Source of the DNA: an uncultured Alphaproteobacteria bacterium
GTDB taxonomy: Bacteria; Pseudomonadota; Alphaproteobacteria; Rs-D84
DNA: 64,000 nucleotides
NCBI GenBank assembly: GCA_944392815.1
Contig: CALXXY010000003.1
Location: 43,520 to 107,519 of the forward strand
Direction: 5' to 3'
The notes beneath the pieces were generated by a model. It had not been told where the DNA came from, searched no databases, and worked only from the letters and a program-made list of their open reading frames with translations. Numbering within the stretch: the stretch's first letter is position 1; every line of letters begins with the position of its first letter. Made by a program: the position numbers and the translations under genes. Shown here piece by piece: positions 59,009-63,905 of the stretch.

Positions 59009-59278
59009 CTAACGTGTTTTTTGATATTGCGCATGTGCCTGATTTTCTTTTTTGGCCCTCATCTGTGCAGCAAAATTTTTTGCCGCCGATTCTGGTGTGC
59101 TGTACAACCCCCACCATTTTTCAGACATCACATCGAAAAAGAATCTGCGCGCACCGTGGTGACGATATACGACAAACACATTAAAACCATCAATACGCTT
59201 ATCCTGCGTATACACCGCAAAAGGTCCACGCACATCTTGGATATTCCAATCAAAAATTTTTTTCATATTTACATGCAT
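59009..59278 (-). CDS. Small hypothetical protein (paralog of 59269-59571)
   Basis: Abuts rlmE and shares the pattern FDW...VY...G[FY]xVxVxYxxHG...EK...NF with its neighbour. Confidence 0.75.
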   Translation of the reverse strand: MHVNMKKIFDWNIQDVRGPFAVYTQDKRIDGFNVFVVYRHHGARRFFFDVMSEKWWGLYSTPESAAKNFAAQMRAKKENQAHAQYQKTR

Positions 59279-59571
59279 TTTTGTTGCCCCCTTTTGTATT
59301 CATTAACTTTTTTTCTTGTTTCCTTGTAAAAATTAATAGCATTGGCCAACGCGCGTTGTGGTGTCACCAATCCCAATTTTTCCATATCGGTCGGAAACAG
59401 CACACATTGATTGCCATGATACAGATAATCCACTTCGACCTCGTATCCCAACAAAACGCGTCCAGCATCTTTGTACACTTCATAACGTGGCCGCGGTGCT
59501 TTGACAGCAACCGGCGTCCAATCAAATTGTTGCCACCACCAATTTGCTTTAAATAAATCAGTCCACCTCAT
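59269..59571 (-). CDS. Small hypothetical protein (paralog of 59009-59278)
   Basis: TAATG coupling with the upstream M-domain gene and the same motif pattern as its neighbour. Confidence 0.75.
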   Translation of the reverse strand: MRWTDLFKANWWWQQFDWTPVAVKAPRPRYEVYKDAGRVLLGYEVEVDYLYHGNQCVLFPTDMEKLGLVTPQRALANAINFYKETRKKVNEYKRGQQKCM

Positions 59572-60089
59572 TAATTACCCTGCTTTTTCATTTTTTCCAT
59601 AACGGCCTCCATACCACCCATACGCTGAACCAATGCCATCTGCTGACGCATTTTAGTATATTGTTTGATAATATGTTCCACATCGCGCACAGTGCACCCA
59701 GCGGTTTCCGCAATACGTGTTTTTGCATTGGCAAAAATTTTTTCGGGTTCTGCACGTTCGGCTGGGGTCATGGCCTCCAGTATTCTGATTTGTGCATCAA
59801 CGCTGCCGTCCTTGATTTTTTCTTTCATCGCGGCCACAGCCCCCGACATTCCGGGCACCATTTTCAACAGCCCGCTGAAATTGCTCATTTTTTTAATCTG
59901 TTTCAATTGCGCCAGCATATCATTCATATCAAATTGTCCAGACATCATGCGCTGGGCAGTTTCTTTCATACCGCTGGGCATTTTTTCTTCTAATTTTTGT
60001 AATTCTTTTTCATCAATCTGCGCGGCTGCATTTTCATTTGCGGTTGTATCAATTGGTTTATTTGTTTTTTTCTTGCCAAATCCGAACAT
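59571..60089 (-). CDS. Stand-alone Ffh/SRP54 M-domain (signal-peptide-binding) protein
   Basis: GQFDMNDMLAQLKQIKKM...LKMVPGM...ILEAMTPAERAEPE...RIAETAGCTVRDVEHIIKQY matches the Ffh M domain. There is no NG GTPase domain. Confidence 0.85.
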   Translation of the reverse strand: MFGFGKKKTNKPIDTTANENAAAQIDEKELQKLEEKMPSGMKETAQRMMSGQFDMNDMLAQLKQIKKMSNFSGLLKMVPGMSGAVAAMKEKIKDGSVDAQIRILEAMTPAERAEPEKIFANAKTRIAETAGCTVRDVEHIIKQYTKMRQQMALVQRMGGMEAVMEKMKKQGN

Positions 60090-60130
60090 TCGATTTACTC
60101 CTTGGGTTAAATTCTGTTTATAACACTACT

Positions 60131-62989
60131 TTATTTTTTACGTGGCGCATTGTCCAGATACTTTTTCAAATACAGCCCCGTCAGCGAATCAGGATTTTCC
60201 GCCACCTGTTCTGGCGTACCAGTGGCGACAACACGTCCACCATTTGCGCCGCCCCCCGGGCCCAAATCAATAATCCAATCCGCTGTTTTAATCACTTCTA
60301 AATTATGTTCAATAACGATGACCGTATTGCCCGCATCAACCAATTCATGCAACACAGACAACAGCAATTTAATATCTGCGAAATGCAATCCCGTTGTCGG
60401 TTCGTCCAGGATATATATGGTTTGCCCGGTACTGCGCGCGGCCAATTCTTTGGACAATTTAATACGTTGCGCTTCGCCCCCGGACAAATCCAACGAACTT
60501 TGTCCCAATTTGATATAGTCCAACCCGACCCGCTTTAACAATTCCAATTTACGTGCAATTTGCGGAACGCTGCTGAAAAATCTGTACGCTTCTTCGACCG
60601 TCATATTTAACACATCGGCAATAGATTTGCCTTTGTATTTCACAGCCAACGTTTCGTCATTATACCGTGCGCCATGACATTTGTCGCATTCCACGTACAC
60701 ATCAGCCAAAAAATTCATTTCAATTTTTATCTGGCCATCGCCCTGACAGGCCTCGCACCGGCCGCCTTTGACATTAAACGAAAAACGCCCAGGCCCATAT
60801 CCGCGTGCCTTGGCCTCGGGCAAACCGGCAAAGAAATCGCGAATATTTGAAAACACACCTGTATACGTGGCCGGATTACTGCGTGGGGTGCGCCCGATTG
60901 GCGATTGATCAATATCGACAACCTTGTCCACATGTTCCATGCCACGAATAATATCATGCGCCCCTATTTCCAATTTGGAATTATACAACGCGCGCATTAA
61001 CGCTGGATACAACGTATCCAACAACAGCGTAGATTTTCCAGAACCCGACACCCCGGTCAACGCAACAAATTTGCCCAACGGAAAATCCACATTAACATTT
61101 TTCAGATTATTTTCACGTGCGCCCTGGATTGAAATCACGTGCCCATTACCCGAACGCCGCCGTTTTGGAACATCAATTTTGCGTTTCCCGGATAAATATT
61201 GCCCAGTCAACGAATCTTTATTTTTAATCACTTGGTCTGGGGTGCCGGCGGCAACCACGCGCCCACCATTAATCCCGGCCCCCGGCCCAATATCCACCAA
61301 AAAATCAGCGGCCCGCATAGCGTCTTCGTCATGTTCAACAACGATAACAGTGTTATCTTTGTCCCGCAGCGTTTTCAATGTATCCAATAATTTATCATTA
61401 TCACTTTGGTGCAACCCAATTGACGGTTCGTCCAACACATATAACACACCAGACAACCCACTGCCAATCTGTGACGCCAACCGAATACGTTGCGCTTCGC
61501 CCCCAGACAGCGTTCCCGCCATACGTGACAAAGTCAAATACCCCAGTCCCACATTTTTCAAAAATTGTAAACGACTGGTAATTTCGCGCAATATAACCCG
61601 TGCAATATCATTTTCCTTTTGCGACAAATGTTGCGGCAAATCAGTAAACCAGCGCAACGATTGATCCACAGACATATCGCACGCGTCCATAATATCCAGC
61701 CCATAAATTTTCACACACAATGCCTGGATATTTAAACGTTTTCCATGGCACACAGGACATGGTTTTTCAGATTGATATTTCGCCAATTCGGCACGCACGG
61801 CCTCGGAATCCGATTCGCGCCAACGGCGTTCTATATTTGGGATTACACCCTCGTACGGTTTTTCATAAACGAACCCATTCCAGTTTATTTTTATGGGCTC
61901 GTCACCACTGCCGTACAAAATAATATCTTTTTGTTGTTGCGTTAACGTATGCCACGGCTTGGACAGCGGTATTTTGTATTTTTTATGCAACGCGTCCAAC
62001 AAATGGTCAAATTGACTTAACATTCCGCCACGCGACCACGGCGCAATTGCACCGTCCAATATGGATTTAGACGGATCAGGTATCACCAAATCAGGCGACA
62101 TATTTAATTGTACACCCAACCCATCACACGCCTGGCATGCCCCCATTGGCGCATTAAACGAAAACAAACGTGGTTCGATTTTCGGCACAGTGAAACCACT
62201 GACGGGACACGCATAATTTTGCGAATATAAAATATCCTCGTTCGTGTCCAGACGTCGCACCAACACAGACCCCGGCACCAAACGCAGTGAACCTTCGAAC
62301 GACGCGAACATACGCGACCGAAATTCATCAGTATCGGCGTCCGACGCGCCCGCCGCCGGCATTTGCAATCTGTCAACAATAACAAATATGGTGTGTTTTT
62401 TATTTTTATCCAATGGTGGCACAGCCGACAAATCGTACAATTCGCCATCAATTATTGCGCGCTGATACCCCTGTTTTACCAAAAACGCAATTTCTTTCTT
62501 ATATTCACCCTTGCGTTCACGCACCAGCGGGGCCATTATGAAAATTTTCACCCCAGCCGGTATTTTCATGGTCCAATCAACCATTTCAGGTATAGTTTGC
62601 GATTTAATCGGCAACCCAGTCACCGGCGAATGCGGCACCCCAATACGCGCCCACAGCAAACGCAAATAATCATAAATTTCAGTCACAGTCCCAACCGTGG
62701 AACGCGGATTTTTCGACGTAGTTTTTTGTTCAATGGAAATTGCGGGCGACAGACCCTCGATTAAATCGACATCGGGCTTTTTCTGCATATCCAAAAATTG
62801 CCGTGCATACGACGACAGCGATTCGACATATCGACGCTGTCCCTCGGCATAAATGGTATTAAACGCCAACGACGATTTGCCCGACCCAGACACGCCAGTA
62901 AAGACCACCAATTTATTTTTTGGTATGTCCAAATCGATATTTCTAAGATTATTTTCGCGGGCCCCGCGAATTTTTATAATTCCAGCCAT
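60131..62989 (-). CDS. uvrA: Excinuclease ABC subunit A
   Basis: Two ABC ATPase modules ([21 protein letters not shown]) and zinc fingers. Start set at ATG 62989. Confidence 0.98.
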
Positions 62990-63215
62990 AGCAAGGATAA
63001 ATATAGAAAAAATTCGGCAAATTGCAACCCCAACCAGCAAAAATAAGTTCCCCAGAAATCTGGGATTTTTACAGAAATAAAAAAGCCACCCAAAAACGGT
63101 GGTTTATTTTCGGCATTTGTTCATACGTATTTTACCCCAAAATCAGCCACTTTGTCAACGGCATTTTTGCCGTTTTTTATCCACCGTTTGCATTCGGCAC
63201 AATTTGGGGGATAAA

Positions 63216-63905
63216 ATGCAAAAATTAAATAATTTCATATACATGATTGCGGCGACATTTGTCGCAAATCTGGTGTATACGATGGACGCATTACACAACT
63301 ATGCAATGGCCGTCTATTATTGCCCACAGGAAATACGCACAGTATGGAAAACCGTGGAAACTGCTGCTGCCTCAGAAGTCAACTCCCTGGCTGCCACATG
63401 CGACGCCGTATGTCGCTGGTACACTATTTCACAATCTTATATGAACAGTTATTCCATTGGCAGCGGCCGCGAAGCTTGGGGAAACGCCTATTACTGTATG
63501 TGTCTGTATCGTTCCACATATGCGCGCACAACTGCGACGCCAGTTTATCGCAGTTGCGGCGTACTGTATTCGTGTGACCACTCAGACGCCACAATGGGTA
63601 CAGATCCATATCAATCATATGAAGTGTATACATCACGCAACGCAGGATATGCCGCCTTTGCCCCAGGAGCAAGGGGACGATTAACAGATATATCATGCTG
63701 TCCGGGCACGGGCACCAACGGCGAATTGGCATACTTTCTGGGCATGGGATCTAATGTCTATGTCGCCAGTCCATATGTTGTTGTACATTCATACCCAGAC
63801 GCCAACAATATTACACAGTGCTATGTCCAGGCACAGGACGGATTCACCGACCCCAGTGGCACATGGGTATACGATTCCGATTGTCGTTATCAACAGGGAT
63901 ATTAA
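63216..63905 (+). CDS. Secreted Cys/Tyr-rich protein with a C-terminal FTDPSGTWVYDSDC module
   Basis: GGGGG RBS, N-terminal hydrophobic leader ending AMA, homolog fragment at 24498 and a terminator downstream. Confidence 0.8.
   Translation: MQKLNNFIYMIAATFVANLVYTMDALHNYAMAVYYCPQEIRTVWKTVETAAASEVNSLAATCDAVCRWYTISQSYMNSYSIGSGREAWGNAYYCMCLYRSTYARTTATPVYRSCGVLYSCDHSDATMGTDPYQSYEVYTSRNAGYAAFAPGARGRLTDISCCPGTGTNGELAYFLGMGSNVYVASPYVVVHSYPDANNITQCYVQAQDGFTDPSGTWVYDSDCRYQQGY

Follow-up and report, generated by a model that had tools for sequence, protein, structure and literature searches.

A lone M domain of the signal recognition particle in Candidatus Enterousia, a bacterial genus without the Ffh GTPase, FtsY or SRP RNA

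What can Ffh's signal-peptide-binding (M) domain do in a bacterium that has lost the other parts of the signal recognition particle (SRP)? The question is raised by a gene of 172 codons in a 64,000-nucleotide stretch of contig CALXXY010000003.1 (hereafter the window), which an earlier reading of the letters alone (the original prediction) had described as encoding a stand-alone SRP54/Ffh M-domain protein. The SRP ranks, together with its receptor and its RNA, as a near-universal component of cells. The host is Candidatus Enterousia (Rs-D84, Alphaproteobacteria), and the N and G domains of Ffh (NG), FtsY and the SRP RNA have been lost from its clade, all three being present in sister lineages. 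The gene at 59571..60089 is, judged by synteny with the full-length ffh of relatives, an ffh remnant left in place, and its product is under strong purifying selection. We regard its derivation from ffh by a deletion in place as very nearly certain. Enterousia is placed in the GTDB order and family Rs-D84, described as bacteria of the farm-animal gut that do not respire, have genomes below 1 Mb and are proposed to depend on a partner (PMC12306168).

Domain content of the protein

A Pfam scan of the 172-residue protein gives SRP_SPB (PF02978) as the single significant family (E 2.8e-23, 82.5 bits, cut-off 27; residues 52–151, profile positions 1–91 of 91), with no match to SRP54 or SRP54_N. The NCBIfam ffh equivalog TIGR00959 reaches 84.7 bits against a cut-off of 473.2 and is matched at positions 313–426 of its 428 only. 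Sequence search of the PDB returned 32 distinct chains at E up to 1, of which 31 are SRP54/Ffh; 5aka_5, the M domain of E. coli Ffh, matches best (E 2e-15) and an alignment to it was obtained, and the 32nd chain (6z1p_AT, E 2.6e-4) belongs to the Tetrahymena mitoribosome, where it is named 'signal peptide-binding domain protein'.

The AlphaFold2 model, built on a 26-row alignment, has nine helices and a mean predicted local distance difference test (pLDDT) score of 69.7; the core (residues 101–150) scores 89–95, residues 1–34 score below 50 (disordered) and the finger loop is of low confidence. In a Foldseek search of the PDB, the leading 38 rows among the matches listed (ranks 1–41 with gaps) are without exception SRP54/Ffh M domains or mitoribosomal M-domain-like proteins, the latter being 6z1p_AT (mL105, rank 31) and, from Toxoplasma, 9g6k_Le and 9i05_AI; the top match is again 5aka_5, with a TM of 0.68 on the target. 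The profile matches and the predicted fold thus indicate a complete SRP54/Ffh M domain and nothing else, which bears out the stand-alone M domain of the original prediction in both its family signature (SRP_SPB without SRP54 or SRP54_N) and its fold. The gene and its parts are as follows.

59571..60089, minus strand: coding sequence of the M-domain protein, 172 aa plus stop, ATG start (open reading frame list, Pfam, synteny)
60098..60103, minus strand: Shine-Dalgarno sequence AAGGAG, 8 nt 5' of the ATG
60066..60089, minus strand: N-terminal octapeptide MFGFGKKK, aromatic/hydrophobic then poly-lysine
59985..60065, minus strand: linker, residues 9–35, variable, mostly polar or acidic and predicted to be disordered (pLDDT, alignments)
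59937..59984, minus strand: clade-specific conserved segment KMPSGMKETAQRMMSG, residues 36–51, running into the M domain
59637..59936, minus strand: SRP_SPB (signal-peptide-binding, M) domain, residues 52–151 (Pfam, the same place in the genome-wide search, and fold)
59766..59777, minus strand: remnant of RNA-binding motif 1, EAMT, residues 105–108 (LSMT in relatives)
59697..59732, minus strand: remnant of RNA-binding motif 2, ANAKTRIAETAG, residues 120–131 ([AS]RKxRIAxG[SA]G in relatives)
59574..59636, minus strand: methionine-rich conserved C-terminal helices, residues 152–172, including QRMGGMEAVMEKM

The coordinates in the original prediction are right and the strand, which it did not give, is minus; the frame of 172 aa with its own ribosome-binding site is likewise as described there.

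Loss of the SRP partners and history of the locus

The genome to which the window belongs (G000; 927,230 bases in 18 contigs, 96.8% complete) holds one SRP_SPB match, which is the M-domain gene itself (83.4 bits in the genome search). No PF00448, the SRP-type GTPase domain found in both Ffh and FtsY, was detected among 14 candidates scored in G000, and no RF00169 (bacterial small SRP RNA) among 22. Searching G000 by tblastn with seven full-length Ffh and six FtsY proteins of relatives recovered the M-domain region only (E 1e-25 to 1e-33), the next match having an E of 0.048. Full-length ffh, ftsY and ffs, whose presence elsewhere in the genome the original prediction had left to be checked, are all missing.

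The same holds across the genus and beyond it. In a survey of 151 Rs-D84 genomes, where the window's genus is g1, PF00448 lies above the cut-off in 28 genomes, all in ten genera (g11, g13–g16, g18, g21–g23 and g25; hereafter SRP-positive). It does so in none of the 109 g1 genomes, including the single-contig G102, and in none of the 13 genomes of g12, g17, g19, g20, g24, g26 and g27, including the single-contig G070 (g19); these eight genera are termed SRP-minus. Thirty weak sub-cut-off matches in g1 fall in Der/EngA, a 451-aa protein with two GTPase domains. SRP_SPB itself is present in 109/109 g1 genomes and in 12 of the 13 from the seven related SRP-minus genera, where its stop-to-stop frames measure 154–273 aa; in SRP-positive genera it lies in frames of about 430–570 aa where the gene is whole. 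RF00169 was found in none of 25 g1 genomes and in 13 of 16 genomes from the order's other families, ten of them over the gathering score. With no NG-type GTPase domain in any of the 109 genus genomes, the suggestion in the original prediction that the gene could be half of a split Ffh does not hold.

The former ftsY locus has been rearranged in G000 and contains no ftsY remnant: relatives have geneA-ftsY-geneB-geneC, and in the G000 counterpart geneA is followed by a pair of genes encoding Cys-rich proteins and then by geneC and geneB in inverted orientation. The Cys-rich family has four copies in the genome, of about 220–265 aa, including 63216..63905 (plus strand) in the window, G000 C4:7498-9181 and C4 near 17898. 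Its members share a near-identical, signal-anchor-like N-terminus (MQKLNNFIYMIAA..VSNLVY), and two of the copies occupy the exact spot of the relatives' ftsY.

The M-domain gene lies in a conserved neighbourhood, which in the window consists of the following.

60131..63040, minus strand: uvrA, conserved upstream neighbour (open reading frame list, synteny)
59009..59571, minus strand: two small open reading frames between the M-domain gene and rlmE, of 100 aa (tryptophan-rich N-terminus) and 89 aa
58343..59008, minus strand: rlmE, 23S rRNA methyltransferase, conserved downstream neighbour

The uvrA stop is 41 nt before the M-domain start codon and so no NG domain fits upstream, in agreement with the roughly 40 bp and the lack of space noted in the original prediction. 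All 24 g1 loci compared show uvrA, the M-domain gene, 0–2 small open reading frames and rlmE, with uvrA directly upstream in 23/24 (the exception begins at a contig end) and rlmE downstream in 24/24. The order uvrA, M-domain gene, rlmE recurs in 11 loci of six other SRP-minus genera and in the closed genome G102, and these 12 loci often continue with rnhA and tkt, as does the window. In eight loci of SRP-positive genera a full-length ffh (frames of 439–499 aa) occupies the same place: the order is uvrA-ffh-rlmE in six, and the other two are consistent with it (ffh-rlmE-rnhA-tkt, with uvrA outside the stretch, and uvrA-ffh at a contig end). Since it stands at the same place between uvrA and rlmE, the M-domain gene is the ortholog of ffh shortened in place, and the shared locus rules out a duplicate.

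Comparison of the sequences suggests how the shortening may have come about. Alignment to the relatives' Ffh starts in the G-M linker, at about residue 19, and identity to their M domains is 41–49%. The SRP-positive gene begins ATG TTT GAT nnn TTn ACn CGn (MFDxLT[RK]R; ATGTTTGAT) and the SRP-minus gene ATG TTT GGT TTT GGA AAA AAG AAA (MFGFGKKK; ATGTTCGGATTTGG), so that the first 8 nt nearly agree; GGAG is found at the same position in all 14 SRP-minus loci compared at their gene starts. The most economical account is a single internal in-frame deletion, which would have taken out the N and G domains and spared the M domain in full, together with the ribosome-binding site, the start region and the G-M linker. 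It would have been one event, in a common ancestor of Candidatus Enterousia and six or more related Rs-D84 genera. In the uvrA tree, 30 of 31 SRP-minus rows fall in one clade (Shimodaira-Hasegawa-like approximate likelihood ratio test 98), the long-branched g17 row being unresolved; g17 does share the clade-specific segment (KIPSGMKETAARMMSGQFDMNDMLAQLKQ). For a 21-row set, a tree in which all 14 SRP-minus rows are kept as one group exceeds the free quick tree by 1.18 log-likelihood units, and the approximately unbiased test does not reject it (p-AU 0.564). These data are consistent with a single origin of the lone M domain.

Several ffh genes of SRP-positive relatives are irregular. In G043 (g13; L122 911..2369, minus strand) ffh lies in two frames, NG of 329 aa and M of 152 aa, broken within the G-M linker (..LMNRF* / ..NRFFSGEF..); this genome is a 92%-complete draft, the contig is of 3.8 kb, and a naturally split gene, a pseudogene and an erroneous frameshift are all conceivable. 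The M domain is spread over two frames in G062:C11:19787-20087, and G085:C8:15460-16428 has one in-frame TAG in the G domain.

The first of the small open reading frames, of 100 aa, starts within the M-domain stop codon (TAATG). Such frames occur in 11 of the 24 g1 loci, and also in g12, g19 and g20, and in none of the eight SRP-positive loci; the two in the window match no Pfam or PHROG family, are single copy and show no similarity to each other by BLASTP. Being present in only 11/24 g1 loci, single copy and without a family, they were rejected as obligate partners. The listed uvrA frame begins at a TTG 17 codons before a conserved 15-residue sequence, and translation probably begins at the ATG near 62989. 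A promoter scan found 13 candidates against 10.5 expected, nothing above chance, and a terminator scan found none between uvrA and the M-domain gene.

Loss of the SRP may extend beyond Rs-D84. Among 401 alphaproteobacterial genomes at least 90% complete, 383 have a PF00448 match (E up to 1e-10), including two unpublished genomes (G210, G384). The 18 without one are three g1 genomes and 15 genomes of eight other families (15/398 other alphaproteobacteria); three families lack it entirely in the survey (f52, 4/4; f110, 3/3; f112, 3/3), and the PF00448-less genomes of other families include closed ones of 1.5–4.6 Mb. Re-scoring of all candidates in five of the 15 found no SRP GTPase and no SRP_SPB, an Ffh protein query in ten of ten such genomes gave nothing better than E 0.0018, and RF00169 was found in none of five tested; SecY, as a positive control, was found in 8/8 checked. 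Their rpsP loci contain no runs of N, and two have dapF-mtaB beside rpsP with no ffh and no ftsY; an SRP-positive comparator has ffh on the rpsP side and dapF-mtaB-ftsY. Complete absence of the SRP may thus recur in Alphaproteobacteria without a retained M domain, or may be a peculiarity of this genome set. The 15 are G195, G224, G280, G282, G284, G333, G371, G410, G411, G449, G478, G508, G509, G563 and G570 (loci L111–L114 and L121).

Selection and the remodelled surfaces

Pairwise NG86 estimates of the ratio of nonsynonymous to synonymous substitution rates (dN/dS) within the genus, using pairs with dS of 0.05–1.5, give a median of 0.094 for the M-domain gene (range 0.021–0.181; 61 of 276 pairs usable), compared with the neighbouring rlmE (0.105; 115/253 pairs) and the C-terminal part of uvrA (0.063; 47/231 pairs). 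The core of the protein (residues 36–168) has a median of 0.054 (61 pairs) and the linker (residues 9–35), where the alignment is unreliable, one of 0.76 (58 pairs); the linker differs in both length and sequence among relatives. Protein identity across the genus is 73–87%, similar to that of rlmE. A recent truncated duplicate lacking purifying selection, the outcome that the original prediction had set against itself, is not what these values describe.

Comparison of 36 SRP-minus with 23 SRP-positive M domains locates the changes. Fixed differences, from SRP-positive to SRP-minus, are G69S, S70N, A102K, S106A and R122A. Position 106 is S in 23/23 SRP-positive sequences and A in 89% of the 36 SRP-minus ones, position 122 is R in 23/23 and A in 97%, position 128 is K in 65% of SRP-positive and E in 100% of SRP-minus sequences, and position 129 is G in 23/23 and T, S or K in the SRP-minus set. 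Positions 106, 122, 128 and 129 lie in the two motifs through which Ffh binds SRP RNA, SM and RxxRIAxGSG, as assigned from the E. coli structure and in the original prediction. The lone M-domain protein departs from both; there they read EAMT and the second remnant listed above, just as the original prediction had read them.

The groove is a different matter. Core methionine content is 12.3% (mean of 36 clade members) vs 10.3% and 11.0% in the relatives' M domains, net charge is +6.4 vs +8.6 and +8.8, and P79 and G80, the PG motif of the finger loop, are invariant; the Met-rich hydrophobic composition of the groove appears to have been kept. The C-terminal helices (H134–156 and H160–171 in the AlphaFold2 model) carry M157, G158, G159 and M160 at 100% in the 36 SRP-minus sequences. 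Residues 36–51 are variable in the 23 SRP-positive sequences and strongly conserved in the 36 SRP-minus ones (G40 100%, M41 97%, and R47, M48 and M49 each 100%). The former RNA-binding face has been remodelled and is itself very strongly conserved, with N121, I126 and E128 at 100% in the clade. Within the clade, residues 84–98 and this face vary less than they do among SRP-positive relatives, which argues for a maintained, possibly new, interaction surface.

The N-terminal octapeptide is the other conserved element. M1, F2, G3, G5, K6, K7 and K8 are invariant in 21 sequences, and other genera have the variants MFGLGKKK, MFNFGKK, MSWFSKKKK, MAWFSKKKK, MAWFGRSKK and MAFLGFGKKK; since these differ between genera, what is kept is the pattern of aromatic or hydrophobic residues followed by poly-lysine. 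The octapeptide resembles the start of helix N1 in the relatives' Ffh (MFDxLTRR) and the starts of their FtsY proteins (MGIFSKISSLF, MGLFSKFSK, MFGLGKK.. and MFGLGKKLSIFGKK); the N-terminal stretch of FtsY is a lipid-binding membrane-targeting sequence. MFGFGKKK probably descends from the original ffh start, to judge from MFDxLT[RK]R in relatives, and the N-terminus is therefore probably not novel, as the original prediction had called it. Derivation of MFGFG from the G-domain motif ILGMGD, which has a similar spacing to RMMSGQFD, was considered and ranked below a kept ffh start.

Proposed role and its rivals

G000 and the closed SRP-minus genomes all encode SecY, SecA, YidC and trigger factor. 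A crude gene call gives 875 genes, of which 107 have at least two transmembrane-like segments and 53 at least four, so membrane-protein biogenesis is still a substantial task; the tie that the original prediction drew to a large set of secreted proteins is unsupported.

As a kind, the lone M domain is already known from mitochondria. MAP67/mL105 of the Tetrahymena, Polytomella and Toxoplasma mitoribosomes is likewise an M domain without NG in a system without SRP RNA. The M-domain homologue mL105 is anchored where the ribosomal tunnel opens, its C-terminal helix lying inside the tunnel (PMC7326499), and in Polytomella it touches density assigned to the Oxa1L insertase, at the place of mammalian mL45 (PMC9576764). 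For MAP67, Pyrih et al. proposed that an Ffh gene of alphaproteobacterial descent lost N and G through an internal deletion, the same mechanism of origin as that suggested here (PMC8321541). The Enterousia protein is detectable as similar to mL105 by both sequence and fold (6z1p_AT, above), with only 21% identity compared with 41–49% to the relatives' M domains, and it is of independent origin, from the resident Rs-D84 ffh. Unlike mL105, it is bacterial, SecYEG is present and there is no sign that it is a permanent ribosomal protein. It thus appears to be a bacterial analogue of MAP67/mL105 without common descent.

Other comparisons set the limits of the likeness. With bacterial Ffh the protein shares homology over the whole domain, the predicted fold, a core rich in methionine, the PG of the finger loop and the helices at the C-terminus; its gene is orthologous by position. 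It differs in having no N or G domain, fixed substitutions in both RNA-binding motifs and a conserved octapeptide and variable linker of its own, in an organism without FtsY or SRP RNA. Loss of the SRP RNA accompanies mutation of the same two motifs in plastid cpSRP54 of seed plants and in mitochondrial mtFfh (PMC8321541), as in Enterousia. Those proteins, however, keep NG and a FtsY homologue, and the Enterousia clade has neither. The SRP is dispensable or absent in some other bacteria: Streptococcus mutans still carries the SRP genes and depends on YidC2, a YidC paralogue whose tail binds ribosomes, and the tiny endosymbionts of insects are further examples. Enterousia resembles both in living without the canonical SRP cycle; unlike S. 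mutans, it has a single YidC without such a tail and has specifically retained the M domain.

We propose that the lone M domain, as what is left of the SRP, works independently of GTP and RNA and still binds hydrophobic segments of nascent chains, at the exit of the ribosome or at the membrane; we judge this reading slightly better than evenly balanced. The 166–196-aa protein would be functional, keeping the Met-rich groove and C-terminal helices and giving up SRP-RNA binding. It would reside at or visit the exit of the large ribosomal subunit, like the isolated E. coli M domain and mL105, and catch emerging hydrophobic signal-anchor or transmembrane segments, and the ribosome-nascent-chain complex would stay close to SecYEG/YidC and able to engage it, with no GTPase cycle. 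The aromatic and poly-lysine N-terminus on its flexible linker may serve as a second anchor, to acidic lipids or to the ribosome surface. Ribosome binding, substrate binding and membrane tethering are each inferred for the Enterousia protein. The M domain of E. coli on its own migrates together with 70S ribosomes and, once these are dissociated, with the 50S subunits, and its overexpression selectively lowers membrane-protein expression with mRNA level and protein stability unchanged (PMC2921155). That the M domain alone has replaced the SRP-FtsY-RNA cycle throughout the clade, as a ribosome-exit or membrane-tethered signal-anchor receptor, is a stronger claim, which we hold tentatively and a little short of an even chance.

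Several observations weigh against this proposal. The loose N-terminal motif also occurs in 11 of the 875 crude genes, and resemblance of the octapeptide to FtsY and Ffh starts is weak evidence. The single YidC lacks a ribosome-binding C-terminal tail, its C-terminus being no longer than in SRP-positive relatives, and no Tim44/mL45-like domain was found in the family Rs-D84; the other parts of a mitochondrion-like tethering are therefore not seen. Because the five tested SRP-GTPase-less genomes of other alphaproteobacterial families are also without an M domain, the lone M domain does not seem to be a general requirement after SRP loss. The remodelled former RNA face might bind a new partner, with the function shifted. 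Low-depth contigs of the metatranscriptome run X5 cover 59409-59603 and 59953-60170, and these could be DNA and are thus no proof of transcription. One X5 contig skips 103 bases at 60023..60127, from the end of uvrA to the M-domain linker, and most likely comes from a related strain whose linker or intergenic region is shorter.

Of the alternatives, a cytosolic holdase survives best, although we consider it unlikely: the protein would bind hydrophobic segments of finished or nearly finished proteins and hand them post-translationally to SecA/SecYEG or YidC. The kept composition of the groove, the presence of SecA and YidC and the post-translational mode of plastid cpSRP54 (PMC8321541) would suit it, but the isolated E. 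coli M domain associates with 50S (PMC2921155), mL105 is ribosome-bound, and it is with the conserved C-terminal helices that mL105 and Ffh reportedly extend to the tunnel (PMC7326499). Somewhat less probable again is a translation brake or quality-control factor, which would slow ribosomes making membrane proteins until targeting by SecA/YidC catches up, with no targeting of its own. The lowered membrane-protein expression in E. coli on overexpression of the M domain alone speaks for such a brake (PMC2921155); that effect, however, came from overexpression in a cell with an intact SRP, and a brake leaves the conserved N-terminal motif and linker unexplained.

To neofunctionalisation, in which the remodelled RNA face would bind a new protein or nucleic-acid partner and take no part in protein targeting, we give the same low probability as to the brake. 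The face is nearly invariant within the clade, and residues 84–98, from the finger loop to helix M2, are 89–100% conserved except at two positions (the exceptions being 86 and the 97–98 region, at 28%, 89% and 94%) and variable in SRP-positive relatives. Yet both the overall fold and the residues of the Met-rich groove have been preserved, and no conserved candidate partner lies beside the gene, the small open reading frames occurring in 11/24 genus loci. That NG, FtsY and ffs are present but missed, through a split Ffh or an assembly or binning artefact, might be suspected from a draft of 18 contigs at 96.8% completeness and from the two-frame ffh of G043, but this is effectively refuted by the absence of the GTPase domain from all 109 genus genomes, single-contig G102 included, of the SRP RNA from all 25 tested, of any tblastn remnant and of space after the uvrA stop 41 nt upstream. 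A decaying, functionless remnant, conceivable in a genome reduced to 927 kb, is refuted by the core dN/dS of 0.054, a frame intact in 109/109 genus genomes and six further genera, and identity across the genus similar to that of rlmE.

The gene family is wider than the window. A protein collection holds 890 members of 94–301 aa (E up to 1e-3); among the 120 matches listed, lengths are 154–181 aa, identities 82–99% and the NCBI name is 'hypothetical protein'. In a search of 1.84 billion proteins, the ten short stand-alone representatives examined are all singletons on contigs of 0.9–18.6 kb, one (a two-member cluster) being named 'partial', and are probably fragments; clusters of short SRP_SPB-only sequences from other phyla in the ESM Atlas (score 0.90) may also be fragments. 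The literature searched contained no report of a lone M domain in bacteria, nor of SRP loss in Enterousia or Rs-D84, and the one genome paper found on Rs-D84 (PMC12306168) does not mention 'signal recognition', 'Ffh' or 'FtsY'. Annotation pipelines label the lone M domain 'hypothetical'. Genome-quality tools that expect ffh and ftsY, which we take to be in the marker sets, would under-score Enterousia genomes.

If SRP loss is indeed recurrent in Alphaproteobacteria, the peculiarity of Enterousia would be the retention and remodelling of the M domain rather than the loss itself. To our knowledge, the only stand-alone M-domain proteins known, MAP67/mL105, are eukaryotic and too diverged to trace. 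The Enterousia reduction has a readable history, with the same locus before and after, one proposed deletion, fixed motif changes and strong selection, and it bears on the question of how mitochondria came to dispense with the SRP. A protein of 172 aa so close to the M domain of E. coli Ffh is tractable for questions of ribosome and signal-anchor binding, of what replaces the receptor and of whether M alone sustains membrane-protein biogenesis. If targeting by the M domain alone proves true, the GTPase cycle would not be indispensable for co-translational targeting, and Enterousia would show, in living bacteria, a repeat of the step from which mL105/MAP67 is proposed to have arisen.

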